Source: Squalus acanthias (lineage: Eukaryota). Taken from it: DNA of 64,000 nt. The notes under the pieces were generated by a model. The model had not been told where the DNA came from and did no database searches. It saw nothing but the letters and a program-made list of their open reading frames with translations. The stretch spans positions 63,550,001 through 63,614,000 of the forward strand of contig CM059439.1 in assembly GCA_030390025.1 (NCBI GenBank), given 5' to 3'. Below, piece after piece: positions 1,306 through 62,486 of this stretch (positions are counted from its first letter, which is position 1; each line of letters opens with the position of its first letter). The position numbers were made by a program, and so were the translations under genes.

Positions 1306-2262
1306 GTCACAAGTGGGATGGCCATGACGCCCACCACCTGGCACCCAATAATCTCCAGCACTCTATTTTCCAGCACAGACAGTGGTTGGGTGTCGGCTTG
1401 TCCCCCGCGTTCCTGCTCCCTCCTGTTGTGAGCCACCTTAGCCTGTAAGAGAAAGTAAGGTGTGTGAGTGAGTGTGGAGCAATGTGTTTGGGTGATGTGT
1501 CTGCCATAGTTGAATAGCTGTCATTGTGTGCAAGGTGTGAGATGTGGGTGTGAGGTAGAGATTGTTGGTGGGTGAGTGCTGGGGGTGTGGTGCTTTGACC
1601 AGTGTGTGCAGACTGTGGTTCAGACAGTGGTATGTAGTATTTGTTTAGACATTCACTCACCCTGACCACCCGAGTGAGGTCGTTAAATTTCTTCCTGCAC
1701 TGTGTGTGGGTCCTGGGGACCACAGTGCTGCCCAAGACCTGATGGGAAACCTCCCTCCACATTGCACAGAAGACTTGCGGCGAGGGCCTCCTGCCACTTG
1801 CCGGGTAGAGCACCACCCTCAGTCTCTCCACAGCGGACACCAACTCCTCCAATGCTTGGTCTGAAAATCTGCGGGCTCTCCCCCTGGGGCGTGGATCTGC
1901 CATGAGTACAGCTGGTTGAGTTGTCCAGCTCCTTGGACTTGGCCTGCTCCTGCTTGCTGACACAGGTTCATAGGCAGCAATGCTGAGAATGAGGTTCTGC
2001 AACATGAATGAACCTCCCCTTTCAGAACTGGAAAGAGCCTGTGGCAATGATGACTTGCGATCAGACTGCACCTGATATTGGTTAGCGCTTTGAGTGTAAC
2101 GCCTCTGAGCTAGGCCGTTAGCGCTTGATTTAGCGCTCCTATCATTTCTTTGAGTGATGACACTGAATTTTGTGTGCAGCGAGAGTCATTAGTGCCTGGC
2201 GCTAAATCTCAAACTTTTCCAAAGTTAGCGCCCATTCCTGGGCTATAATGAATTTCTCCCCC
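1306..2262 (-). mobile_element. Truncated PIF/Harbinger element end carrying a Myb/SANT-like (NAIF1/MSANTD-type) gene fragment
   Basis: Exon 1903-1661 encodes MADPRPRGRARRFSDQALEELV...W...RTHTQCRKKFNDL and ends at a gtgagt donor. Exon from 1442 encodes AKVAHNRREQERGG. TIR-like end aatttctccccc at 2251-2262. Confidence 0.75.
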
Positions 2263-4573: not shown

Positions 4574-5063
4574 ACACTGCTCCACGGAAGCTCAGCGTAA
4601 GCTCGAGGAACAGCACCTCATCTTTCGTTTAGGCACGCTACAGCCCTCTGGACTCAATATCGAGTTCAACAATTTTAGATCATAACCTCAGCTCCAATCA
4701 CATTTATATTTTATTTTATCCACCCTTTTATTTGTCCCCCCCACCTTTTTTTTCCTCCTAGAAGCTGGCAGCTGTCCTTCATTCTGCCAGTAGATTTCAC
4801 ACTTCATTCAGCCTTAATCTGTCACATTAACACCACCTCTAGCCTTGCATATCTCTTAATGTCTCTTAATGTCTCTTCATCTCCTCCTTTGTTCCTTTAT
4901 CCCCTCCCCCTTTTCCCAGCTTTACCCTGGCCTTAAATCTATTTGATTTCCAGCTCTTCCCAGTTCTGATGAAAGGTCATCGACCTGAAACGTCAACTCT
5001 CTTTCTCTCTCCACGGATGCTGCCTGGCCTGCTGAGTTTTTCCAGCGTTTTCTGTTGTTATTT
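4574..5063 (+). mobile_element. 5'-truncated Penelope-like element 3' end (GIY-YIG tail plus pLTR)
   Basis: Encodes EAQRKLEEQHLIFRLGTLQPSGLNIEF. 12-bp TSD cccccttctaat at 4562-4573 and 5064-5075. Confidence 0.85.
4961..4998 (+). ncRNA. Minimal type I hammerhead ribozyme (canonical GUC site)
   Basis: AGUU-CUGAUGA-A-AGGUC(AUC)GACCU-GAAAC-GUC|AACU: full core, stem II hairpin, stem I AGUU/AACU. Confidence 0.8.
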
Positions 5064-5094
5064 CCCCCTTCTAATCATCAGTTGAGTGATAACA

Positions 5095-5725
5095 CATAAA
5101 CTGCTGGAAATGCTCAGCAAGTCAGGCAGCATCTGTGGAAAGAGAAGCAGAGTTAATGTTTCAGGTCGATGCTCTTTCATCAGAACGTGAAACATTTACT
5201 CTGTTACTAGTGTCAGCTGTGGCTCAGTTGGTAGCACACTCACCTCTGCGTCAGAAGGTTTGTGGGTTCAAGTCCCACTCCAGGGATATATGCAGTGCTG
5301 AGGGAGTGCTGAACTGTTGGAGGTGCCGTCTTTCGGATGAGACGTTAAACCGAGGCCCCATCTGCTCTCTCAGGTAAAAGATCCCATGCCACTATTTTAA
5401 AGAACAGCAGGGAGTTATCCCCCGGAACCTGGCCAATATTTATCCCTCAACCAACATAACAAAAAAACAGATTATCTGGTCATTATCACATTGCTGTTTG
5501 TGGGGCCTTGCTGTGCGCAAATTGGCTGCCGTGTTTCCCACATAACAACAGTAACTCCACTTCAAAAGTACTTCATTGGCTGTAAAGCGCTTTGAGACGT
5601 CTGGTGGTCGTGAAAGGCGCTATATCAATGCAAGTGTTTCTTTCTCTTTCCGTAAATGCTGCCTGATTTGCTGCGTGTTTCCAGCATTTTATATCAGATC
5701 AGATATCGGCAGTATTTTGTTTTTG
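5095..5725. mobile_element. Fold-back Penelope pLTR derivative interrupted by a SINE; degenerate hammerhead on - strand at 5151-5186
   Basis: Inverted arms gctggaaa..cagca..caggcagcat / atgctgcctg..tgctg..tttccagc lie on either side of the SINE. Confidence 0.7.
5212..5645 (+). mobile_element. Near full-length Deu-domain SINE (SacSINE1-like)
   Basis: A box tggctcagttgg, B box ggttcaagtcc, Deu core, L2-like tail aaggcgctatat..atgcaagt. Confidence 0.85.
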
Positions 5726-5937
5726 AATCAGTGATAGTAGGAATCAGCAATAGTGCCATCAGACAACACCACTGAGCTATTCACCAATGCTAAGTTCAAG
5801 TTGACTAGTGGGCCTTTTCAAAAATGTGATCCAATGAATGGGCGATGCAAGATCATGTGGGGTGCTGTAGCCATTTCTCTGAGGCTGAATTTGACAAATC
5901 CACAGCATTGATTATTTTACATAATTTGAGCTGCAAG

Positions 5938-7321: not shown

Positions 7322-8255
7322 GGTAAGAAATAGCTGCTAGACTCAAAAATGGGGTTTTGATTCTTAGAACAGAGACTGATAACAAACTGAAGAGTTGCGG
7401 CCGGGAATGCATGGCAGGAATGTCAGCAAGGTCAGATAACAAGCACAAAAAGACAAATGGCCGAGGCCAGGGCATGGAAGTGATAAGGGAGTCGTAAAAT
7501 GCAAGACAACACAAGATGGTAGAATGATAGTTAGACAATATGGAGCCAGAAAGTCATAAAATGTCCTTAAAGAAACATAACAAGACATTCCTCAGAAAGA
7601 TAAGAGGAAGGCCTTGTCAGCCATGATTGACACCAGGTAATCACCAGCCCACCGAAATAACATATAAAATAGGGGACCGAGAAAGAAATAGTCAGACAGC
7701 TAGGGGCGAAGGCTTCCTCAAGGTGGAAATCAATGCTGGCTTATGCCTAACACCTCGAGGGACGAACTAACAGAAGTGACCAATACAAAAGCAAAATACT
7801 GCGGATGCTGGAAATCTGAAATAAAAAAAGAAAATGCTGGAAATACTCAGCAGGTCAGGCAGCATCTATGGAGAGAGAAACGGAGTTAACGTTTCAGGTC
7901 GATGACCCTTTGTCAGAACTGGAAAAAGCTGGAGATAGAACAGGTTTTTAAAAGAGACAAACGGAAATCTCGTCGGAGAGAAGAGCAGAACTTCTTCAAG
8001 GTGGGCATTCTTAGAACAGAAGTGACTGTTGCTGTAAGCTGCAGAGATCCGCCGACCCGAGACCTCCACACTGTCTCATTGGGCTTCGGGGGTCGTAGAT
8101 CGCTCTCTACTGTCATGGGTTGTATGACTATTATACTTATCTTAACCACATGTAATATCTGATTATGCTTTAAACTGTAGCTCTTTAATAAAAAGCCTTA
8201 CAACTCCTAAGACCCTTTGGGTAATGTGTGTGTGACCTGTGATCTAAACCCTCCA
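7322..8255 (+). mobile_element. Probable solo LTR inserted in the CT-rich repeat
   Basis: Unique sequence interrupting the repeat. TATA (catataaaa, about 7661), AATAAA (about 8186), GT-rich tract, CA end. No clean TG start or TSD. Confidence 0.5.
7781..8014 (-). mobile_element. Internally deleted Penelope mini-element (ORF start fused to pLTR end); hammerhead at 7884-7920 with CUGACAA core mutation
   Basis: MPTLKKFCSSLRRDFRLSL matches the start of the 57057 ORF. Flanked by aacagaagtgac at 7769-7780 and 8015-8026. Confidence 0.8.
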
Positions 8256-10342: not shown

Positions 10343-10545
10343 ACAAAGATAAAATACTGCAGATGGTGGAAATCTGAAACATAAACAGAAAATGCTAGAA
10401 ATACTCAGCAGGTCAGGCAGCATCTGTGGAAAGAGAAACAGAGTTCACGTTTCAGGTTGGTGAAAGGACTGAAATGTTAACTCTGTTTCTCTCTTCACAG
10501 ATACTGCCTGACCTGGTGAGTATTTCCAGCATTTTGTGTTTATAT
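10343..10545. mobile_element. About 200-bp fold-back mini-element made from the Penelope pLTR end
   Basis: Inverted arms of about 75 bp. 14-bp TSD aataggaatgagtt at 10329-10342 and 10546-10559. Confidence 0.85.
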
Positions 10546-34021: not shown

Positions 34022-34114
34022 CTGAAACAAATAAAAGAAGCAAAACTCAATTAATACTCAGTAGCTCTGGCTGCATCTGTTACACAGAATAATCCGCAGA
34101 ATACTGAAGATTAG

Positions 34115-34830: not shown

Positions 34831-35474
34831 AATACTGACTTTTAAAAAAAAACGTATTTAACATTGTAGTCTCAGAAAAATCAATCAATAGAATACAATA
34901 TGAAAGATCCCTGTGGATATCACAGCTAAGGGGATGCGAGAATCCTGGAACCAACAGAATCTGGGATTGCTAGTCTCTGTGCACATGTTCCCAATGCTTC
35001 CACGAGGCCTTGTTGCATCTGTCTATTATTGTGTTGTTATATTTTGACTATTTCTAAGATTTGGGACATTTAGCTATTTGACCTAGAAGGGATTCTGGCG
35101 TAATTAATAAGGTCAGATTCCAGTTACAAAGGATTAACTCCCAGAGATACACAATGTTGATGACAATGATGATTAGATGGGAGCACCAGACAGAAGAGCA
35201 TTTAAATTATGGACTTTCACATGTCACATTAGTGCTGCACTGGAGTGTCAGCCTAGATTATGTGCTCAAGTCTGTGGAGTGGGACTTGAACCCACAGCCT
35301 TCTGACTGGGAGTGCTACCACTGAGCCACACCATCAGAAGAGTTATAGTTCCTTAACTGAAATGGTCATTCCCACCATGATGCTTTCTTTGTCTATCAGG
35401 TACATCATTAGATAAATTTCCACCCAAATACCACACAGTTAATGATTCCTTGCCATGATGACCTCGCCACTTAC

Positions 35475-35828
35475 CACCGGTGTACGATACATGGAAGCCA
35501 CGAGAAGCTGTATTCCTGTCAGCAGACAACACAAATAGAAGTCTGTTCCCATTGGACAGCAGTGAAGGGGGTGAGTTCCGACCGCACCATTTCCCCAGCA
35601 ATGTGTCAGTCTCACTGTCTCCATCAAAGATCGCCAGAAAGTCATAGTCGCAGGCGTCACTGAGGCTGTCCCTGTCCTCTAGCTCAAAATCAATGAAGTG
35701 AACTTTCACCCTGTAACTGAGAGGCTGCTGGACTGTCCAATGACAGTTGATATTATTGGGGTATATATTTGGGTATCGGGGGCTGGAAAAATTCCCTTTA
35801 ATGGCTGTGAATACTTGCTGACATTCAC
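35475..35828 (-). CDS. CDCP2: CDCP2 exon 4 (CUB3)
   Basis: (G)ECQQVFTAIKGNFSSPRYPNIYPNNINCHW...CDYDFLAIFDG...GKWCG...SRGFHVSYTG, 354 bp, phase 1-1. Confidence 0.95.
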
Positions 35829-38130
35829 CTGAAGGAAATGAGACACAACATATAAATATTAACCCTTAAAAAATAAAATTTACAAATAAATAATTATTAG
35901 TACAGTTAGGCACGAAACAAAAACCACAACGTGGCTGCTACCTAGAATTGACAGTGATTCTTTGTGGATCTGTGAACGTGAAGGAATTGCCCTTTGACAA
36001 GCTGGTTACGGTTGGTTGGGAAACGTCTGTGCTCATCAAGGCAAGGGAATGTTGAAGGAAGGAAACGGAACACTTTCCGAATTAGAGCTCCCAATGTCAA
36101 CATTAAGTAGTCCCATGGCTAGCATACCATAGTTAGGTGCAGAGTAAAATATCTTCTATACTATCCCAACAATGGTCCCAAAGTTCTTCACATCCTGGTG
36201 GTCACGCCAGGATTGCAGCCCCCCACCCCCCCGCCCCGCGGATTCCCGGTGTCCTCCCGCACTGATCCTGACAGAGATTGCAGGGTCAGTGAGGGGGGCA
36301 CCCAATTAGCATGGGACAAGCACACTTTGCACAAGCCTCTGGTGTCCAACTGCCTCATGAGGCCAGAAATTTCAAAAATGGAGAGTCACAAGAAAATGTG
36401 TAACGGAGAGAGGTTGGACAAGGATTGCCAAACAGATGAGATTTTTCTTGTATCCTGTTTAGTAGAGTGAGAGAGTTGTTAGAAGAATCTCCTCAGATAT
36501 AGGAACAGTATTCAAGTCTTGGAGAGGCATGAACTTTGTAGAGAGTTAAGAAATCTTGAGGGGAGCAAAAATGTTCAGCAAGAAAGGAAGAAGCAACCTT
36601 CTTGGAAGGCAGTTTTATGAAAGGAAGACATTCAGGAGTTCCATTTGAGATCCCTAGCCCTCACCTCGCCTCTCCCTCTGCACGCTGGCATCAGTTGACA
36701 AAGTCCTTGCCCAGCGCTAACTTTATGCCGAGGACAGTTCCTTTGGGGCCCCGCCGTCCTGAGGCTCCCAACCCGATTTCCTGGTCAGTCCTGCCGGTTT
36801 CGGGAGGGACACTATCCTGTAATATTTAAAATGAGGCCCGGGAGTTAAAATGGCCCAGGCCTCTCGCTGAGATCCGCCTGGGGGTTTCTCTCCCACCTGC
36901 ACCGCCACCCATCCCGAACGCGACCCCCAGTAAAAATCGTGGCCGTAGTATCGCTGAATAATTGAAAGAAACAACGTTTTTGCTGCCTAAGAGATTGTCA
37001 AATTAGTGTCCATTAGTGGCAAATTATGGGTAATATTGTACTGTGCATCCACATCAGAGAGCAACTTGGTCGAGAGCCCAAGCTCATTTCATATAGGACC
37101 ATTCAACCCAACAGAGAGAAGGGTCTTTCCTCTCATCAGTCTCTGAGTTTTCTCTCTTTCCACCTCTTGCAAGGCAAATGGCGGCCTGGAGAGTGGGGGA
37201 CTTCCTACACCATGAGTTTCTGGCCCTGGCTTCAGAGGTGAAAGGACAGTATCTAATCCCCCATATCGCCCACCCACTACCGCCAACACCCCCGCCCAAT
37301 TCGTTCTTTCGAAATTACTTCTCAGAAAAATTGATACTTGATCCTCCACAGACCACAGGAAACATCTGTTTCATCGGTAAAGCAGATAACCTTGCTGTCA
37401 GCTCATACTCAGTGGGAGCAAACTTAAATAGAAAGAACTGTGACAGCAGCGACTCAGTCTGGAAATAGATCAGCTCCACTCACCTCACTGGCGAGTGTTG
37501 AACAAAGGTTCGCTATTCTACCTACTCCTCAGAGTCCATTTCTATAACTCCCCTGTTGTAAATGTACTGCATAGTGGGTTATTCAACTGCACAGATTTAG
37601 GAGACCAGGTTTCTACTGAGTTCGTGAATTTCAACTGAGGTAGCTAAAATTAGCCTCAGTGTCTTTAGGCTAAGGATGGAAAAATCCCACTCCTGATCTT
37701 AATCCAGTGATTCTTGATGGGAGGAGCACGCATGGATGTCAGGTGAGGACAGAATCAAACTTGGCTGCAACGCTCCAGTGGTCAAACAGCGCACCGGCAC
37801 TCGCTGTTGGGAGATTTTACAGTGTTAAAGACGCTGTATAAATACAGGTTGTGGTTGTTGTCTAGACCACATATTAAGAATGGCCACTTGGGCAAGGCAC
37901 CAAAGGACAGTTGACATCTGTGGAATTGGAGAGGGAGAGAAGGAAAGTTGAACAAAAAAATAATTACAGCCCTCACAGCCAGCGGTGGGTTACGACCTTA
38001 AATGGAAAACTATTTCTAATTTAATCAGGCTTATTAATGAACTCGGTGAACACAAGGAAAATATTAAAAGGCTGTCTATATCAAATTAGTTTGTTTGAAA
38101 ACAATTTCAAAGAATATTATCTTTTATTCA

Positions 38131-38586
<456 letters not shown>

Positions 38587-43247: not shown

Positions 43248-44357
43248 ATGGGTGCTATTTATACAGTATCACCTTGGTCCTCAGAATCGGACCTCGATGA
43301 GCCCCAACACCAGCAGCACCAGGGACACCTGCAGCACTAACAACAACACCAACCTTCTCCTCATCAACCTAATGCTGCACAGGACAGAGGGCATTAACGC
43401 AGGGCTGCACCACGCTGGAGGCAATACCCCCAACACAGGGTATACAGGCAGAGGCTGAGCTTCCTCAACATGACTGAGCAGCAGTGCCAAAGGAGGTTCA
43501 GGCTACTGTGCCAGATCGTCGCAGACATTTGCAGATTGTTGGAGCAAGACCTGCAGCCCAGAGGAGCGGGTGGCCACACCTTACCAGTGGCTGTCAAAGT
43601 CACCAGCGCACTCAACTTCTTCGCCTCAGGCTCCTTCCAGGGATCTGCAGCAGACATTTGCGGCATCTCGCAGTCGGCCGCCCACAGATGCATCACACAG
43701 GCCATCGATGTCATGTTTGACAAGTCAGCCAATTATATCAACTTTGCCACTGATGAAGCCAGTGTTACTGAGTGGGCACTGGGCTTTGCCGCTCTGGTTG
43801 GCTTCCCACGGGTGCAGGGTGTCATCGACTGCACACGTGGCCATCAGGACACCCAATCATCACCCAGGAGTGTTTGTGAACCGCAAGAGCCTCCACTCCC
43901 TCAATGTGCAGCTCGTCATAGGAAGATCATTATGCATGTGTGTGCCAAATTCCCTGGCAGCTGCCATGGCTCTTTCGTCCTGCGCCAGTCCACCCTCCCT
44001 CAGCTCTTCGCTCCTCCAAATAGATTTTCTTGCTGGCTGCTTGAAGACAAGGGCTATATACTGAAGACGTGGCTCATGACACCCTTGAGGAGGCCAAGTA
44101 CTGAGGGCGAGGAGAGATATAATGAAAGCCACATTCCCACCAGATGTGTCATAGAGCAGACAATAGGCATGCTAAAAATACGCTTCAGATGCCTTGACAG
44201 ATCTGGAGGAGCCCTTCAGTATGCACCAGCCAGGGTCTCGAGAATCGCCATTGTCTGCTGCGCCCTGCACAACATAGCGCAACAGCAAGGATTAGCGCTG
44301 CATGAGGAGCAAGGCTCTGAGCGCACAGCCTCTTCAGAAGAGGAGGAGCAGGAGTAA
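43248..44357 (+). pseudogene. Harbinger DDE transposase (HARBI1-like), frameshifted
   Basis: [23 protein letters not shown]|HVAI..NRK..HSLNVQ (other frame), [46 protein letters not shown]. Confidence 0.9.
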
Positions 44358-44899: not shown

Positions 44900-46667
44900 T
44901 CCGCCTGCGACTGTGCAGGGGCAGACTCAGCCATCGCGATCCCAGGAGGCATGTGGGGCTATGACTGAGGGGGAGGCAATGGGTGAGAAGTGTGGGCGCT
45001 TTGAGAAGAGCCCCCACTTCCATGTCCCCTCTCACCATCATCCCTCTTATGGGCCACCCGCACTTCCCTGCTAGCAAGGAGCTGGAGAGCACCTTGCTGC
45101 ACAGCAGTGGAGCCATGAGGACCTAAGTGTACGTTTACATCCCTCCTAGAGAGGAGGTCTATGAGCGTCTGCCATCTATTCTCCATTGATAGACATCCAT
45201 TCTCCGTAGATTCCATGTGCTCCTGTGAGTGGTGCATTAGCTGCTTCATGCAGGTGGCCATCCTTTCCATGGAAGAGCCTACAGTCGCCATCGTCTGCGA
45301 CACGGTGGTGCTCATGTTGGAGATGGACTCCTCCATTCTCTGCACACTTGCAGACATCGCAGGTCGCAAACCTGTCAGAGCCTCCTGCACTTCTTGCTGC
45401 ACCTCCAGGAACGTCCTCTTTCTGGATGGCCCCCGAGGCTCAGCGTCTGCATGCAGCTGAGCAGAGCTGGGAGTGTCCTGTGCCCTTCGGTGAGGAGTCT
45501 CCACTGCTGTCCCTGTCTCCACCATCTCCTCTTGCTCACTTGTGACTTGTGAGACACCAGGCGACAACATTAGTCTATCTTGCGTGGGACCCAATGAGGT
45601 GTGTGTATCTGCGCTGGTGCTGGGTGCGCTTATGTCTGGTGACGCTGCACCCTCAGAGGCTGGAGGCTCCTCTGAGCAGTCGTCTTCCTCTTCCTCCTGG
45701 ATAGTGGGGCGGGGGGGGGGGCGGAGGGGGGATGGCGGGGGCTCTTGATGGATATGTGGGAGAGTAAAGAGATGATTTAGAAATGTCATATCAAGAATGG
45801 GTAATGATACCATTATGCACATGATGAACATTCACTGGCTGCTGACATCAGTCCCCATATGAGTGACTTCTTTCTGCCATGTGGTTGTATGAGATGTAAT
45901 TCTGTTACCAGGTTGCTGAGATGTCCCCCGCTCTCCGTCTCCCACCGCCAGCTGCTCTGCGACTCCTGAGACTTCCAGGGCGACCTTCTCTGCTGCAGTT
46001 AATGATGGAAGGCACCTCTGGTTCTCTCCCTCTTCCTCTTATTGTGGGCTCTCTTCTCCTACAAGGAGGCAAAGAAGAAAAGTTTGAGTGAGAGTAATGG
46101 AATGAGTGTAAGGAATGGATAAGTAACATATTTAGAGGGTAACGATGATGGAATGGGGTGCCAATGCCAAATGGCCTCCTTGTGTGTTGTTGGTTGGTAT
46201 GATTGCATTAGGATGAGGATGAGTGCACGGGGTGTTTTGTCAGATGGGGATGTGATAATGCAGATAGAGAGAGAGGGATGGGTGGATCTGCAAGGTATGT
46301 TGGTGTTGATGTGCAGGACCAGGCTTGGGAAGGCAGAGTGATGGGGATATGATGAAGTTGAATTTGGCTTTGCACTCACCTTTCCTGAACTAATCAGATC
46401 ATTGAAGCATTTCCGGCACCACACCCAGGTTCTCCTGACAGCAACCCTGCTGTTGACCTCCTCTGCTATTTGGAGACAGGCTCCTTTGGTCTGTTGGGGA
46501 GGTCTCTTCTGCCCATCTGAAGGGAAGAGGACCTCCCTGCATGCTCTCACTCCCTCCACAAGCATATGGAGGGTTGTGCAGGCACTGTACTGCACCATTG
46601 GAGTACCAAGCATATGGAAGGAGTCATCTGAGAACCTGGGTGCAGCTCTCTGCCTCTGTGCAGTCAT
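44900..46667 (-). pseudogene. Harbinger Myb/SANT-like DNA-binding protein gene, spliced and degenerate (exons about 46667-46380, 46058-45910, 45745-44900)
   Basis: RAAPRFSDDS..LVEGV..REVLFP...RTWVWCRKCFNDL|gtgagt, then EKRAHNKRKRERTRG, then an acidic/coiled-coil region. Confidence 0.75.
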
Positions 46668-47432
46668 GTTTGCAAGTGTTTGGAACACTCCAATGGTGCA
46701 GTACAGTGCCTGCACAACCCTAGATGAACCTTCATATGCAATGTGACCATGGCTCCTTTAAATATCCCGGCTGAAAACACGTCATCGATGACGACATTAG
46801 ACCCGCACCATTTAATAGGGCCGGGTAATGCGCAGGGCTGCCTTAATAACTCAATATGTAAAAAGCCCAACAAGGGAGGATTCGCTATTGGATCTAGTAA
46901 TGGGGAATGAACCAGAGCAGATAAGAGAAGTAAAAGTAGGGGAACATATAGGCAATAATGACCATAATATAACATGCTTTAAGATGATAATTGAGAAGGA
47001 CATAAGTATGACGAAAACCAGGTTAATAGATTAGAGAAAAGCTGATTTTGAGCGGCTAAGAATAGAACTTAGGGGGGAAAAAAGGGCAACAGTACTGGCA
47101 AACAACGATGTAGAACAGCAATGGGAAACATTTAAAACGGTGTTCAACAGAGTGCAGGAAAAATATATTCCGCTAAAAGGAAAGAACAAACTAAACAATA
47201 ATGAGACTCCATGGATGAATAAAGCCATAAGGGAACAATTGAGGGTAAGGAAAGAGGCATACATTAAGTATATAGACAGCAGAAGAGTGCATGATAAGAG
47301 AGAATACGAAAAGATTAGGAGAGAAGTCTAAAAAACAATTAGGGAGGCAAAGAGGAACTATGAAATTAAATTATCAAGGAACATAAAACAAAATAGTAAA
47401 ATATTTTATAGGCACATCAATAAAAAAAGGAA

Positions 47433-48370
47433 TAGCAAAATACTGCGGATGCTGGAAATCTGAAATAACAACAGAAAATGCTGGAAACACTCAGCAGGTC
47501 AGACAGCATCGACGAAAGAGAAACAGTCAATGTTTTGAGTCGGGGACCCTTCGTCAGAACTGGAAAAGGTTAGGGAAGAGAGATTTTTAAGTAGGGACAG
47601 GGAGGAGGGGAGGAAAGAACAAAGGGAAGGTCTGTGATAGGATGGAAGGCAGGAGAGATTGACAAAAGGGATGATGGTGCAAGGCAAAAGGAGAGCTAAT
47701 GGGACAAGTTAAGAAACAAAAGATGGCTCTAGGTGAGGTGTGAATGATGATGACAGCATCATTAATAGCTACCATGTGAGGAAACAAGAGAAAAAAATTA
47801 AAAAATATAAAGAAATACAGGGGCCAATTTATAGTCTGAAATTGTTGAACCCTATGTTAAGTCCAGATGGCTGTAAAGTGCCTAATAGAAAGATGAGGTG
47901 CTGTTCCTCGAGCTTATGTTGAGCTTCATTGGAACAGTACAAGAGACCGAGGACGGAGAGGTCAGAGTGGGAGTGGAGGGGAGAATTAAAGTGACAGGCG
48001 ACCGGAAGCTCGGGGTCACGCTTACGGACTGAACGGAGGTGTTCCGCAAAGCAGTCACCCAATCTGCGTTTGGTCTCCCCAATGTAGAGGAGACCGCATC
48101 GTGAGCAGCGAATACAGTATACTAAATTGCAAGAAGTACAAGTAAATCACTGTTTCACTCTTCCCTAAAAACAAATTCTCCTGCCTTCCATCCTATCACA
48201 GACCTTCCCTTTGTTCTTTCCTCCCCTCCTCCCTGTCCCTGCTTAAAAATCTCTCTTCCCTAACCTTTTCCAGTTCTGACGAAGGGTTTGACCCGAAACG
48301 TTGACTCTGTTTCTCTCTCCTCGAATATGCCTGACCTGCTGAGTGTTTCCAGCATTTTCTGTTGTTATTT
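47433..48370 (-). mobile_element. Penelope fragment with inverted pLTR ends
   Basis: GIY-YIG C-terminal part on - (47829-48155). Inverted arms about 47465-47655 and 48178-48370. 14-bp TSD aataaaaaaaggaa at 47419-47432 and 48371-48384. Confidence 0.9.
48271..48306 (+). ncRNA. Minimal hammerhead ribozyme motif (variant stem II)
   Basis: AGUU-CUGACGA-A-GGGU(UUG)ACCC-GAAAC-GUU|GACU. Confidence 0.7.
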
Positions 48371-53065: not shown

Positions 53066-53443
<378 letters not shown>

Positions 53444-54777: not shown

Positions 54778-56883
54778 TGCTGAGCATATAAAGAAAACTA
54801 AAAACCCAGACAGGAAAGGCAAAATTATATAATTCTTTACAGCAACATATGAAGTAACACACAATGGTTGTAGAATTAATAGTGGCATTAATAATTCACT
54901 AGTAGTCTGAATTAGAAACTTGATCCATCTCTGGTTCCTTTCAGTAAATATTAATGAGCTGGATCCAGTGTCCTCACCCTCCACACTGCACTATACAACT
55001 TGTTGTACAATCTTTGGAACAATGACGTAAATATTTAATTTGCTCAAGTCATAAATATTCTCTTGTAAATTTAGGAATGATCCCATATTCATTAATTACT
55101 TTATGGAAATCTTTACAATTTAACATTAAAAATTGATCCATTTAACAGATGCTGGTAAGTACAAAAGAACCCAAAGGGATTTTAAAAGCTCTGAGGTTGC
55201 TAGCTTTAAAGACTGTAATTAGAAGCCCATGGACATCGGGTCCATGAGTCCTCTCCCCTGCACCCCTCCCCAACCTTGGTAGTACCCCCCTTTTAACTCA
55301 AGTTTTCTTTTGATGATTTTGAATAATGATTTTTGAAAATCTTCGCAAAATTCAGTTCAATTTTCTCTTCTTAAGGCAATGACTGCACCTTATCAGTCCT
55401 AGGTAACCCTAGAAAGTATGCATGTGTAGATATTGAGGAAAAATATGATCGGGCTCAGCTGTGAGGATCTTCATGGTTGAACAGCTTGCCGACACTCAAT
55501 ATCTAAGCTCATACATGAAGAATAGCTACTTGGGCATGGTACTAGTAGACAGCTGGCACCCACGGAACATATCCTAGCAAGATTGGGCGTGTTCAGCAGA
55601 GGAGAGGAGAAAATGCATGCAAGAAAAGGGTGTTGGATTAAAAAAAGGAATGCAACAATTTATGTAGACCATCTGATCAGAATCAATAGCTCTTTTAATA
55701 ATTTAATCAATTTAGAGGTCAAATGGGGGCAGTTGTTTTGAGTGTGTTAGGAATGTGAGATTTTTATTCCCAGAATTGTAACTGAAAGGAACATTGCAGT
55801 CTGTCTGCTGTGTCTCCCTAATCCTGGCAGGAGATACTTCAACGTAGTGAACAAGAATATATTAATTTTCAGAATTTACCATATGGAGCGCAGTATCTTC
55901 AAAGCAAGGTGAAAAGTAATACAATGTCCATGTCTTACCATATCTTTCTTCACTGATTTAACTTTTAACTGTGACTAACATACTTGTTCCATGCTGTTCA
56001 ATTGAATGATCGCTTGATACCAACTGAGCCCTGGTGTGTTAAGTCTTGTAATTTACAGTCCAACCATCTCAGGCCTGGTCTTTCCCCAACCAGGATCAGT
56101 TACATCAATTTCTGATGGTACCAATCTACAGCCATCAGGCACGAATACCCTGCCCATCACAATCCGCTTGCTATAACACACTGTTAGTGTACACAGGCTA
56201 CTCCTCATACCTCCCCCCTTCCCACTGTCCAGGGCCCCAAACACCCCTTCCAGGTGAAACAGCGATTTACTTGTACTTCTTGCAATTTAGTATACTGTAT
56301 TCGCTGCTCACGATGTGGTCTCCTCTACATTGGGGAGACCAAACACAGATTGGGTGACCGCTTTGCGGAACACCTCCGTTCAGTCCGTAAGGGGGACCCC
56401 GAGCTTCCGGTCACCTGTCACTTTAATTCACCGCTTCACTCCCACTCAGACCTCACCGTCCTCGGCCTCTTGCATTGTTCCACGGAAGCTCAGCGTAAGC
56501 TCGAGGAATAGCACCTCATCTTTCGATTAGGCACTTTACAGCCTTCTGGGCTCAACATAGAGTTCAACAATTTCAGATCATAACCTCAGCCCCTATCATA
56601 TATATATATTTTTTATCCACACTCTTTGTCTGTCTTTTTTTTTCTTCCCCACATGGCAGCTGTCTTTCATTCTGCCAGCGCAATTTACACTTCATCTAGA
56701 GCCATCCTTTGTTTCTTAACCTGTCCCATTACCATCTCCTTTTGCCTTGAATATCTCTTAATGTCTCTTAACCTCTCCTGCCTTCTATCCTATCACAGAC
56801 CTTCCCTTTTGTTCTTTCATCCCCTCCCCCCTTTCCCAGCCTCTACACTTGCTTAAAAATCTGTTCCATTTCCTGCTTTTTTC

Positions 56884-56921
56884 CAGTTCTGACGAAAGGT
56901 CATCGACCTGAAACGTTAACT
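56884..56921 (+). ncRNA. Minimal hammerhead ribozyme in the 5' pLTR
   Basis: AGUU-CUGACGA-A-AGGUC(AUC)GACCU-GAAAC-GUU|AACU. Confidence 0.78.
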
Positions 56922-57056
56922 CTGTTTCTCTCTTCACAGATGCTGCCTGACCTGCTGAGTATCTCCAGCATTTTCTGTTTTTATCTCAGATTTCCAGCAT
57001 CTGCAGTATTTTCTTCTTGTATTAGTGTTTAATTCACTGCCACCTCTCTTCCAGGA

Positions 57057-59786
57057 ATGCCCACCTTGAAGAAGTTCTGCTCTTCTCTCCGATGGGAGTT
57101 CCGTTTGTCTCTTTTACCTTGTTCATCTTCATTGCTTTCTGTCTCCCTTCTCATGTTAGATCAGGTATCTACCAAAACTCGCTTTCACAGCCACAATACT
57201 TTCCTCAGCAACTGTTTCCGGCTCCGACTTACTCCACGTGGATTCCAACTGAAATTCCACCCTTTGTGTTTTGGATCCACCCAGGACTACAGATATCTCC
57301 AAGATATTCAGCGCTCCTCGAACCACTGCTCTCGCCGTATCCTGAGATCGACGCTGAATGCCATGCGCCGCCACATGAACACTCTCGACCTCTCTCTTCA
57401 GCAGCACCAACTCACTCTATCTCAAAGCTGTCCTGGTCCGCAGTTCCATTTCATCCTTCGCCTCATCCGGCACTTTAACAAAAAACTTTTTTTCTTCCTT
57501 TCAGGTGTCAAGGATCGCAAGCTTCAACAACTCTTGGACACCAACGGCCCTCTGGAACCTTCTTCCCCTTCACTTTCCTCTGACCCCATCCCTTCTCCCA
57601 ATCTCATCCCCTGCCGCGTTTTCAGTATCCCCTCTGACCTTCCCCTCTCTGACCCCGAACGATCAGTCCTTAGCAAAGGCCTGAGCTTCATCCCCTTACG
57701 CCCCCACCTCAATGAATTTCGAGCTCGGCACGATGCTGAGCTCTTTTTCCGCCGCCTTCGTCTCCGTGCCCACTTCTTTGGCCAGGAGTCTTCCCCACGC
57801 ATGGCTGACCCTTTCTCCCGCTTTCAGAATTCTCGTTCTACCTGGACCCCTCCCTCTGGCCTCTTATCCTCCCTAGATCTTTTCATTGCAAACTGCCGGC
57901 GTGACATCGGCCGTCTCCATTTCTCTGCTCCCCTCACTCACTCCAACCTTCCTCCCTCTGAACTTGCAGCACTCCATTCTCTCAGATCCAACCCCGACAT
58001 TGTCATTAAACCTGCTGACAAGGGTGGTGCTGTTGTTGTTTGGCGAACCGACCTCTACCTAGCGGAAGCTGAACGCCAACTCTCCGACACCTCCTCCTAC
58101 CTCCGCCTGGACCATGACCCCACCACTGAACATCAAGCCACCATTTCCAAGACTGTCACTGACCTCATCTCCTCTGGAGATCTTCCCCCCACGGCCGCCA
58201 ACCTCATAGTTCCCCAACCCCGCCCAGCCCGCTTCTACCTCCTTCCCAAGATCCACAAACAGGACTGCCCTGGTAGACCCATCGTTTCAGCCTGTTCTTG
58301 CCCCACAGAACTTATCTCTTCCTATCTCGACTCTATTTTTTCTCCCCTTGTCCAGTCTCTTCCCACTTACATCTGTGACTCTTCCGACGCCCTCCGCCAC
58401 TTTAACAGTTTCCTGGCCCCAACCGCCTCCTTTTCACCATGGACGTAGAATCCCTCTACACCTCCATCCCCCACCAGCATGGCCTGAGGGCACTCCGCTT
58501 CTTCCTTGAACAGAGACCCAACCAGTCCCCATCCACCACCACCCTCCTCCACCTGGCTGAACTTGTTCTCACATTGAACAACTTCTCCTTTGACTCCACT
58601 CACTTCCTCCAAATCAAAGGTGTTGCTATGGGAACCCGCATGGGTCTTAGCTATGCCTGCCTTTTCGTGGGATATGTGGAACACTCTTTGTTTCAGTCCT
58701 ACTCAGGTCCCCTCCCTCACCTCTTTTTCCGGTACATTGATGACTGTATTGGTGCCGTTTTCTGCTCTCGCCCTGAACTGGATAATTTCATTCACTTTGC
58801 TTCCAATTTCCACCCTTCCCTCACCTTCACATGGTCCAGCTCCGACTCTTCCCTTCCCTTCCTCGACTTCTCCGTCTCCATCTCTGGGGATAGGTTATTG
58901 ACAAACATTCACTACAAGTCCACTGACTCCCACAGCTACCTGGACTACACTTCCTCCCACCCCGCCTCCTGTAAGGACTCTATTCCATTCTCCCAGTTTC
59001 TCCGTCTCCGCTGCATCTGCTCTGACGATGCCACCTTCCATACCAGTGCTTCTGACATGTCTTCCTTTTTCCTCAACCGAGGATTCCCCTCTACTGTGGT
59101 TGACACGGCCCTTGACCGTGTCCGTTCCATCTCCCACACTTCTGCCCTCACCCCTGCCCCTCCCTCCCGGAACCACGACAGAGTTCCCCTTGTCCTCACC
59201 TTTCACCCCACAAGCCTCCACATTCAACGGATCATCCTCCACCATTTCCGCCACCTCCAGCGTGATCCCACCACCAAACGCATCTTCCCCTCACCTCCAC
59301 TTTCAGCATTCCGTAGGGACCGCTCACTCCGCAACACCCTAGTCCACTCCTCTATCGCCCCCAACACCCCCACCCCTTCGCCCGGCACCTTCCCGTGCAA
59401 GCGCAGGAGATGCAACACATGCCCTTATACCTCCCCCCTTCCCACTGTCCAGGGCCCCAAACACCCCTTCCAGGTGAAACAGCAATTTACTTGTACTTCT
59501 TGCAATTTAGTATACTGTATTCGCTGCTCACGAAGTGGTCTCCTCTACATTGGGGAGACCAAACGCAGATTGGGTGACCGCTTTGCGGAACACCTCCGTT
59601 CAGTCCGTAAGGGGGACGCGAGCTTCCGGTCGCCTGTCACTTTAATTCACCGCTTCACTCCCACTCAGACCTCACCGTCCTCGGCCTCTTGCATTGTTCC
59701 ACTGAAGCTCAGCGTAAGCTCGAGGAATAGCACCTCATCTTTCGATTAGGCACTTTACAGCCTTCTGGGCTCAACATAGAGTTCAG
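57057..59786 (+). pseudogene. Penelope RT plus GIY-YIG endonuclease ORF (frameshifts near 58410 and 59617, stop at 59728)
   Basis: KPADKG, LPKIHK, GRPIVS, MDVESLYTSIP, GVAMG, RYIDD, Cys linker CKRRRCNTC, NLVYCIRC..LYIGETKRRLGDRFAEH. Confidence 0.92.
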
Positions 59787-61303
59787 TAATAGAAATAGTA
59801 GATGCATTGCTGGTCATCTTCCAAAATTCTATAGACTCTGGAACAGTACCCATGGATTGGAGGGTAGCTAATGTTACCCCACTATTCAAAAAAGGTGGTA
59901 GAGAGAAAACGGGGAATTATAGACCGGTAAGCCTGACATCGGTAGTGGGGAAAATGCTAGAGTCCATTATAAAAGATGTAATAGCAGAGCACTTGGAAAA
60001 CAGTGACAGGATCGGACAAAGTCAACATGGATTTACAAAAGGTAAATCGTGCTTGATTAATCTACTGGAATTTTTTGAGGATGTAACTGGTAAAATAGAT
60101 AAGGGAGAACCAGTGGATGTGGTGTATTTGGACTTTCAGAAGGCTTTCGATAAGGTCCCGCATAAGAGATTAGCGTGTAAAGTTAAGGCACATGGGATTG
60201 GGGGCAAGGTATTGACTTGGATAGAGAACTGGTTGGCAAACAGAAAGCAGAGTTGGAATAAATGGGTCTTTTTCCGAGTGGCAGGCAGTGACTAGTGGGG
60301 TACCGCAGGGATCGGTCCTAGGACCCCAGCTATTCACAATATATATTAATGATCTAGACGAGGGAATTGGATGTAATATCTCCAAGTTTGCAGACGACAC
60401 AAAGCTGGGTGGGAGTGTGTGCCGTGAGGAGGATGCCGAGAAACTCCAGTATGATTTGGACAGGTTGGGTGATTGGGCAGAAGCATGGCAGATGCAATAC
60501 AATGTGGATAAATGCGAGGTTATCCACTTTGGTGTCAAAAACAGGAAGGCAGATTATTATCTGAATGGCAATAGATTGGGAGAAGGGGAAGTGCAACGAG
60601 ACCTGGGTGTCCTTGTGCACCAGTCGCTGAAGGTAAGCATGCAGGTGCAGCAGGCGGTTAAGAAGGCAAATGGTATGTTGGCCTTCGTAGCGAAAGGGTT
60701 CGAGTACAGGAACAAGGGTGTCTTGCTGCAGTTGTACAGGGCCTTGGTGAGACCACATCTTGAGTATTGTGTGCAGTTTTGGTCGCCTTATCTGAGGAAG
60801 GATGTTCTTGCCATGGAGGGAGTGCAGCGAAGATTCACCAGGCTGATACCTGGGATGGCAGGAATGACGTATGAGGAGAGATTGGGGCGATTGGGCTTAT
60901 ACTCGCTGGAGTTTAGAAGAATGAGAGGGGATCTCATTGAAACTATTCTAACAGGACTAGACACAGGAAGGATGTTCCCGATGGCCGGGGAGTCCAGAAC
61001 CAGGGGTCACAGTCTAAGGATAAGGGGTAAGCCATTTAGGACTGAGATGAGGAGGAATTTCTTCACCCAGAGAGTGGTGAACCTGTGGAATTCTCTACCA
61101 CAGAAGGCAGTAGAGGCCAATTCATTAAATATATTCAAGAAGGAGTTAGATATATTTCTTAAAGCTAAAGGGATCAAGGGATATGGAGAGAAGGCAGGGA
61201 CAGGGTACTGAATTTGGATGATCAGCCATGATCTCATTGAATGGCGGAGCAGGCTCGAGGGGCTGAATGGCCTACTCCTGCTCCTATCTTCTATGTTTCT
61301 ATG
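59787..61303 (+). mobile_element. Young CR1 LINE (HER1-like) inserted into the Penelope 3' repeat
   Basis: Largely open RT ORFs (YLDFQKAFDKVPH, FADDTK) and (CTATGTTT)n tail. Splits gagttca|acaatttcagat. Confidence 0.92.
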
Positions 61304-61614
61304 TTTCAACAATTTCAGATCATAACCTCGGCCCCTATCATATATATATATTTTTATCCACACTCTTTGTCTGTCTTTTTTTTTCTACCCCACATGGCAG
61401 CTGTCTTTCATTCTGCCAGCGCAATTTACACTTCATCTAGAGCCATCCTTTGTTTCTTAACCTATCCCATTACCATCTCCTTTTGCCTTGAATATCTCTT
61501 AACCACTTCCGTCTTCTATCCTATCACAGACCTTCCCTTTTGTTCTTTCATCCCCTCCCCCCTTTCCCAGCCTCTACACTTGTTTAAAAATCTGTTCCAT
61601 ATCCTGCTTTTTTC

Positions 61615-61652
61615 CAGTTCTGACGAAAGGTCATCGACCTGAAACGTTAACT
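61615..61652 (+). ncRNA. Minimal hammerhead ribozyme in the 3' pLTR
   Basis: Identical to 56884-56921. Confidence 0.78.
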
Positions 61653-62302
61653 CTGTTTCTCTCTTCACAGATGCTGCCTGACCTGCTGAGTTTCTCCAGC
61701 ATTTTCTGTTTTTATTTCTACTCCTCACTACTTTGGTGTTAGTCACTCTATCTTCTCTATTCCTCACAAGTGGCATAAAATGGTATATTGAACTTTCCTC
61801 ATTATGTATACTAGTTATACAACAAATTTATTGATTGAATTAGTAGGTATGTTTTAAAATTGAGTTTATTTTCATTAGGAGGATAAAAGGTGCCATGTGA
61901 TTTGCCCCACATAGTGACCGTTCACCCTTTGATATGACTTTATTACAGACAATGGAAAGTAGAGGTTGCTTTTCTGATCCTGAGAGAAGTGTCCCAATTA
62001 TACTATAGCTTTTGCATTAATAGTATGCAGTTTCCCTGTTGCATTATTGTGTAAAAGTGTGGTATAATTGGGCAGGGATGTTGTCAATCTGATGGTAGAT
62101 TAGGTTTTGGCAAGCGGTGAGAGTCCCTTTGTATTTGGACATCAATGAGCCAACCTCAGCGCCTCCATGTAAGCACATATGCATAAAGCTCCACTGTGCC
62201 TGCCCACAGCATGATGTGGAGCCAGCAGTATAACTCCATGCTGCCCGTATGACCGCTCGAAGTGGATACCAGTGTCAGTTTAACATCACCATTAAACACC
62301 TA

Positions 62303-62486
62303 AGTAAAAAGCAAAATACTGCAGGTGCTGGAAATCTGTAAACAAAAACAGAAAAAAGGTGGAAATACTTAGCAGCTCAGGCAGCATCTGTGGAGAAACA
62401 GAAGTCAACCTTTCGAGTCTGGCCTAAAACATCGATTTCTGCATCTACACAGATGTTGCCTGAGCTGCTGAGTATTTCCACCTTTT
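62303..62486. mobile_element. About 185-bp fold-back mini-element from the Penelope pLTR end
   Basis: Inverted arms aaaaggtggaaatactt..cagctcaggcagcatctgtg / cacagatgttgcctgagctgctgagtatttccacctttt. 15-bp TSD accattaaacaccta at 62288-62302 and 62487-62501. Confidence 0.85.

Follow-up and report, generated by a model that had tools for sequence, protein, structure and literature searches.

The window, a stretch of 64,000 nt of the genome of the cartilaginous fish Squalus acanthias (GenBank assembly GCA_030390025.1, contig CM059439.1, positions 63,550,001 to 63,614,000 of the forward strand), includes on its plus strand at 56208-61717 a Neptune-type Penelope-like element (PLE). The element has the layout pseudo-long terminal repeat (pLTR), open reading frame (ORF), pLTR, i.e. 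a partial tandem, and each pLTR carries a minimal type I hammerhead ribozyme motif. The limits given in the original prediction, which was made from the sequence alone, proved to be exact, as the 10 bp target duplication CTACTCCTCA flanks the element on both sides. The features of the element are:

56198-56207 (+), left target-site duplication, 10 bp, identical to 61718-61727
56208-56986 (+), 5′ pLTR, 779 bp, a 5′-truncated copy of the 3′ end of the element that includes the GIY-YIG endonuclease (EN) C-terminus, the 3′ untranslated region (UTR) and the hammerhead
56885-56921 (+), 5′ copy of the minimal type I hammerhead, with a cut predicted to follow 56917 (GUU)
56937-57023 (+), conserved stem-loop and 'tail' of ~35 nt past the cut; family members end at ~56986 and at ~57016-57023
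57057-58445 (+), N-terminal half of the ORF, with the N-terminal domain, the DKG motif at 58017 and the start of the reverse transcriptase (RT); frameshift near 58406-58445
58406-59785 (+), C-terminal half of the ORF, with the RT core (YIDD at 58733), the linker and GIY-YIG; 1 nt frameshift near 59617, stop at 59728
59428-59785 (+), 3′ pLTR, left part
59786-61304 (+), long interspersed element (LINE), 5′-truncated, 1519 bp, a secondary insertion in the 3′ pLTR with a 4 bp duplication, TTCA
61305-61717 (+), 3′ pLTR, right part, ending 69 nt past the predicted cut
61616-61652 (+), 3′ copy of the minimal type I hammerhead, with a cut predicted to follow 61648
61718-61727 (+), right target-site duplication, 10 bp

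The coding region is of single-ORF design, with an RT and, at the C-terminus, a GIY-YIG EN as in PLEs classed as EN+, and is broken in this copy. Its N-terminal half shares 47 % identity over 428 aa, and its C-terminal half 54 % identity, with the intact RT-EN homologue P0002. The Pfam match to RVT_1 (E 0.0034) is below the Pfam cut-off, while GIY-YIG was detected both in the ORF (E 7.7e-06) and in the 5′ pLTR (E 8.9e-05). The ATG at 57057 coincides with the start at MPTL in the homologues P0005 and P0011 and sits 139 nt past the 5′ cut, in agreement with the ~140 nt predicted, and an upstream ORF of 30 codons (56940-57032) lies between the cut and this ATG. Among named proteins, the nearest are gene models of sharks and rays (61-70 % identity), from Rhincodon (70 %), Hypanus, Chiloscyllium, Mobula and Stegostoma, and in several such models fragments of the family carry an annotation as host genes.

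The element includes the DKG motif, a CCHH zinc finger in the EN and, between RT and EN, a CX4CX2C linker (CKRRRCNTC, 59396-59422). A CX2-5CxxC linker was reported by Craig et al. 2021 (PMC8557442) to be common to Neptune and Nematis and absent in Penelope and Poseidon. By its linker, the element falls with Neptune or Nematis and not with Penelope or Poseidon. Like the Neptune and Nematis EN+ elements described there, the family has a C-terminal GIY-YIG with CCHH, the linker, DKG, a partial tandem arrangement, inverted 5′-truncated partners, a tail of 30-40 bp and a target duplication of variable length, but its targets here are not microsatellites.

This copy is dead, with two frameshifts, a stop in the EN and a LINE of 1.5 kb in the 3′ repeat. 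The original prediction took no account of the dead ORF or of the LINE that splits the 3′ pLTR, and its proposal that a unit-length RNA is released is not supported for this copy, which cannot yield a functional one, since the ORF is broken and the span from cut to cut is 4731 nt with the LINE included. Without the LINE the unit is 3208 nt, making the insertion ~1.24 units long. The LINE contains two matches to RVT_1 (E 4e-17 and 2e-11) and is presumably CR1-like, going by the type of its tail. The two pLTRs are 97.8 % identical, with 17 differences in 768 aligned columns, and both contain the stop inside the EN (56509 and 59728), which is not found in copies C and E of the same family (below). 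This shared stop suggests either mobilization in trans from a template that was already defective or gene conversion.

Identical 38-mers are found at 56884-56921 and 61615-61652, one per pLTR, and there is a hammerhead in each because a pLTR is a second copy of the 3′ end of the element. As predicted, both are complete. They consist of stem I (AGUU/AACU), the core CUGACGA, stem II of 5 bp with a 3 nt loop (AGGUC-AUC-GACCU), GAAA, C and the triplet GUU, with an unpaired extra A at 56896 (between positions 9 and 10.1), and a loopless palindrome, ACGU at 56913-56916, replaces stem III, so that no monomeric stem III is formed. A strict descriptor found four matches in the window (the two pLTR motifs and those at 4966 and 48276) and none in 200 dinucleotide shuffles; with a loose descriptor, 0.11 matches were obtained per dinucleotide shuffle of the window. 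An Rfam scan of the window gave no hammerhead family at E≤1 and one chance microRNA match, and such a miss would be expected for a loopless variant of the hammerhead.

Cervera and de la Peña 2014 (PMC4209133) described motifs of this kind for the pLTRs of PLEs of the Xena, Poseidon and Neptune groups, with fishes, coelacanth, lamprey, Xenopus and reptiles as hosts. They reported the extra base, the palindrome, no activity of monomers and low activity of dimers, and proposed a model involving dimers and circles. The minimal type I hammerheads of PLEs that the original prediction names, with their putative cleavage as dimers, agree with this work, and the circle model is not new. The family shares with their minimal motif the presence of one motif per pLTR, CUGANGA plus an unpaired base, a 4 bp stem I, a loopless palindromic stem III, GUU or GUC triplets, many solo copies and pairs on opposite strands. 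It differs from their consensus (Fig. S3) in the pair A10.1-U11.1, though one coelacanth row there also has A-U. Reviews (PMC6765202, PMC6155905 and PMC6431247) treat hammerheads as a general feature of PLEs. No cartilaginous fish is among the hosts listed in Table S1 and in the rows covered of Fig. S3 of PMC4209133. A whale shark preprint describes a PLE expansion, and another preprint (bioRxiv 10.64898/2026.07.22.740005) reports hammerhead repeats in one chondrichthyan genome, with a mean family length of 363 bp, and Neptune and Poseidon PLEs in five vertebrate classes. Our shark-specific literature search, which left most subscription papers and repeat databases outside its reach, found no dedicated report of PLE hammerheads. 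The element extends to a further vertebrate lineage a feature that has been regarded as general for PLEs since 2014 and, as a dead copy, in itself matters little.

The family is dense, with seven insertions in the 64 kb, namely the element described above and six more:

4574-5063 (+), solo pLTR copy C, intact motif with a GUC triplet, 12 bp duplication
5088-5733, head-to-head copies G(-)/L(+), split later by an insert resembling a short interspersed element (SINE); junction inside the hammerhead, duplication not clear
7781-8014 (-), copy F, 234 bp, start of the ORF joined to the end of a pLTR, 12 bp duplication
10343-10545, head-to-head copies H(-)/I(+), 14 bp duplication, inversion point inside the hammerhead
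47433-48370, head-to-head copies E(-)/D(+), 14 bp duplication; the motif of D is intact and has G10.1-C11.1, that of E has decayed
62303-62486, head-to-head copies J(-)/K(+), 15 bp duplication; the arms invert at stem II of a hammerhead that has decayed

Target duplications across the family insertions are 10-15 bp; G and L have no clear duplication, and the upstream piece of L is separated by the SINE-like insert. A covariance model built from the window copies found, beyond the seven training copies and H/I, no other intact motif in the window, and it also failed to detect the decayed J/K motif. Weak matches to this model at 1985, 53841 and 32555 contained no hammerhead on inspection.

When the 3′ ends of the copies were expressed relative to the predicted cut, they fell into two clusters ~35 nt apart. 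The shorter ends are at +69 (the main element, C and D), +67 (I), +68 (G) and +56 (K), and the longer ones at +99 (E), +106 (F), +103 (H), +104 (J) and ~+103 to +110 (L). All 11 ends thus lie 56-110 nt past the cut and none at it, and all 11 copies hold sequence from upstream of the cut, i.e. they read through it. A 27 nt match at 34054-34080 (E 0.004) was left out of this count as weak. The sites at ~56986 and ~57016-57023 may therefore be the points at which reverse transcription starts. The ends show that the template for insertion was an RNA intact at the cut site, and linear RNA running from cut to cut is excluded as the template because all 11 ends lie past the cut and all copies read through it. 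Of the cut unit-length RNA envisaged in the original prediction, the linear form therefore does not stand as insertion template, and the circular form is possible.

The direct use of a linear RNA cut at both motifs as template for target-primed reverse transcription is accordingly very improbable, even though the ORF is flanked by two motifs and its start codon is 139 nt past the 5′ cut. Ends of a related family (below) likewise lie downstream of the cut (+67, +70 and +119 to +126, apart from those at +20 and +21), and such a route is contradicted, save for the case that the enzyme crosses the nick while stem I keeps the product together.

A scan of genome contigs recovered seven related loci (L001-L007) that share 45-52 % protein identity with the element. 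Their records are labelled as bacterial metagenome-assembled genomes and hold animal-type Penelope elements, and these loci are probably animal (host) DNA within the bins. With the model from the window copies, the motif was found ~105-115 nt past the EN in five of the six related loci that include the end of the EN, and in the sixth (L003) it is decayed. Motifs of the related family, of which six of eight carry U4C in the catalytic core, lie at 2612 (L001), 4116 (L002), 850 (L003), 1988 (L004), 2059 (L005) and 2644 (L006); hammerheads of other families are present at 4739 in L001 and at 2187/295 in L002. When the window pLTR was aligned locally with the 3′ region of L005, the best match had the motif at its centre. 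In a joint alignment with the relatives, 91.9 % of cells are paired, with eight double-sided changes (U-A to C-G in stem I, A-U to G-C in stem II). None of 500 shuffles scored as high and slid controls gave 14-50 %. Across ~50 % protein divergence, the NUH triplet, the palindrome and the positions of the catalytic core are retained. Within the window, core positions show fewer mismatches (2/66) than the sequence upstream (28/160, p=0.002) or the free positions of the motif (6/35, p=0.02). Judged from these alignments, we consider conservation of the hammerhead at the level of the family to be real.

Several observations limit this conclusion or weigh against the explanation that we favour (below). 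The comparison of the core with the 47 nt downstream (22/270) is not significant (p=0.19), and the rows behind these mismatch counts are not independent, two having been found via the motif. The six distinct full motifs in the window taken on their own (92.3 % of cells paired, one covarying pair) were equalled in 92 of 500 shuffles, and the joint alignment consists essentially of two related groups, with a measure of further pair types that was matched by 499 of 500 shuffles. The identity of the two motifs is uninformative on selection, as 38 identical bases are expected with P=0.43 given the similarity of the pLTRs. Both motifs have A10.1-U11.1 and not the consensus G-C (>80 %, not invariant), which copy D and the related loci do have, and U4C is present in the catalytic core of six of the eight motifs from related loci. 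In a folding model that ignores the tertiary contacts of the core, two inactive monomers with the core paired to the cleavage strand (-18.4 kcal/mol) and the best cofold (-23.1 kcal/mol) both come out as more stable than the active dimer (-10.9 kcal/mol). These modelled energies would agree with cleavage that is weak or assisted. Finally, the ends cannot distinguish an RNA that was never cut from one that was cut and re-ligated, and an uncut tandem and a re-ligated circle both fit.

It is almost certain that the element is a dead copy of a Neptune-type, EN-bearing PLE of a cartilaginous fish with the usual pLTR-ORF-pLTR layout, in which each pLTR has the minimal hammerhead typical of the family. 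For the active source elements, we favour an account in which the hammerhead would be maintained by selection, as the comparison with the relatives in part indicates. Judging from the literature, it would cleave weakly and between molecules, via the ACGU palindrome and swapped stems I and with assistance from the element protein. Insertion would start internally, ~69 or ~104 nt past the cut, and copy through the cut, as the ends indicate, and the template would most likely be an unprocessed tandem or read-through RNA. Cleavage may then serve to trim or turn over multimeric transcripts and not to make the template. We put the probability of this explanation as a whole (identity, selected motif, internal starts and uncut template) at roughly 0.55.

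A published element for comparison is PAc, the Poseidon element of Anolis carolinensis and the one PLE reconstituted in vitro (Frangieh et al. 2024, PMC11167929). In PAc, the ribozyme needs protein to cleave, ribozyme mutants leave insertion unchanged, the 'tail' was traced to two internal RT start sites and there were no RNA-seq reads ending at the cut. The element described here likewise has its hammerhead near the junction of pLTR and ORF and two internal end points past the cut that bound the tail. Unlike it, PAc, being a Poseidon, does not have the linker finger, and its ORF starts inside stem II rather than 139 nt past the cut.

A circular template is a possibility of clearly lower probability than the uncut template that we favour. 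Two motifs of one transcript would pair and cut, a ligase would circularize the unit of ~3.2 kb and the RT, starting at +69/+104, would go round more than once to produce pLTR-ORF-pLTR. The length of the insertion, ~1.24 units, speaks for it, as do the 13 of 441 columns, including the EN stop, at which the pLTRs share a base that differs from C and E, which fits one segment copied twice; a tandem source locus, subfamily-specific bases or gene conversion would explain these shared changes equally well. Moreover, as the 3′ pLTR ends at +69, a linear transcript would have the downstream leader only at the 5′ junction and, if binding of the leader is needed as in PAc, copying of the ORF would require a circle or a longer tandem. 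Yet metazoan minimal motifs are poor cleavers even as dimers (PMC4209133), eight of nine Xenopus dimer constructs showed no cleavage (bioRxiv 10.64898/2026.07.22.740005), and in PAc insertion in vitro was unaffected by ribozyme mutants and no reads ended at the cut (PMC11167929).

It is less probable again, indeed unlikely, that the motif acts mainly as a structure (a site of RT pausing or strand switching, a platform for protein or an element linked to splicing), with cleavage being incidental. The conservation of catalytic core, NUH triplet and palindrome at ~50 % protein divergence would not be needed by a plain hairpin, and the PAc motif does cleave with protein (PMC11167929). On the other side are the frequency of U4C in the related family (6/8) and the AG of a pyrimidine tract at 56886 in stem I, resembling the intron end at helix I in the D. 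virilis Penelope (PMC4209133). In addition, three of the four inverted insertions in the window join inside the 38 nt motif, and an inverted arm at L003 halts at -30, with short repeats of the motif next to it; these are only four or five events, and any stable hairpin with short inverted repeats could yield such junctions. That the motif is a chance match or a relic without function is barely tenable. The copy is dead and now neutral, and the identity of its motifs is what the pLTR similarity predicts, but there were no strict matches in 200 shuffles, and distant relatives carry the same motif at the corresponding position, where compensatory changes are seen. Conservation refutes this explanation at the level of the family, and it holds only for this dead copy.

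In all four head-to-head insertions of the window, a short and a long end are paired. The junction lies within the motif in three, with H at -17 and I at ~-9, J and K at ~-10 to -20, and G at ~-32 and L at -11, and far upstream of it in E/D (-663 and -143). The same pairing of long and short was found at 435-961 of L003 within a 17 bp duplication, one arm halting at -30 and being followed by short repeats of motif sequence. A tentative reading, which we regard as doubtful, is that inverted insertions arise from two primings at the +69 and +104 start sites on opposite target strands, the cDNAs copying through an uncut or re-ligated cut site and then stalling and joining in the ribozyme fold. 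Such junctions need no more specific cause than a hairpin with short inverted repeats, and the number of events is small. Inverted partners and tails (PMC8557442) and pairs of motifs on opposite strands (PMC4209133) have been published, while no description of junctions clustering in the ribozyme was found in the literature searched, and the events here are few. The short inverted copies resemble the palindromes of miniature inverted-repeat transposable elements (MITEs). If the tentative reading were true, the abundant short palindromic MITE-like copies of shark genomes would be a fossil record of strand switching at the ribozyme and of circular or unprocessed templates. With a dense family and clean mapping of ends and inversions, shark genomes could be used to distinguish uncut from circular templates and to examine the ribozyme as a strand-switch site.

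In copy F, the start of the ORF (about +134 to +199) is fused to the end of a pLTR (-64 to +107). This single copy could have arisen by a template jump, or it could be copied from a retrozyme-like unit of 263 nt that suffered a deletion but kept the motif. Non-LTR retrozymes (PMC7229834) contain type I hammerheads and are related to pLTRs. They are non-coding tandem units of 170-400 nt, unlike the 3.2 kb coding unit found here, which is autonomous in design, and copy F (234 bp) is the only copy in the window that resembles a retrozyme monomer.

Exons encoding CUB domains were found on the minus strand at 35356-35865, 38131-38586 and 53066-53443, which suggests that the element is antisense to a CUB-domain host gene and lies inside or upstream of it. 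All four motifs that are intact lie on the plus strand and run antisense to this gene, and the three full minus-strand motifs (E, F and G) show changes in the core or palindrome, mostly of the CpG type, though the numbers are too small for a conclusion. The pyrimidine tract and AG (56876-56886) end inside stem I in copies A-F, and there are donor-like GTAAG sites upstream at 56387 and 56495. When 225 proteins were searched for peptide images of the motif, one match was obtained, with 0.165 expected by chance, in the read-through tail of P0116, a named Stegostoma gene model. The model reads through the 3′ UTR, and its terminal peptide is compatible with a translated hammerhead core, which is suggestive only.

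Elsewhere in the window, ORFs with DDE_Tnp_4 and Myb/SANT domains are located at 43398-44354 (+), 46062-46757 (-) and 1310-2185 (-), a combination that we take to be that of Harbinger-type DNA transposons. Further LINE RT fragments lie near 28.3, 39.2, 48.6 and 63.0 kb.

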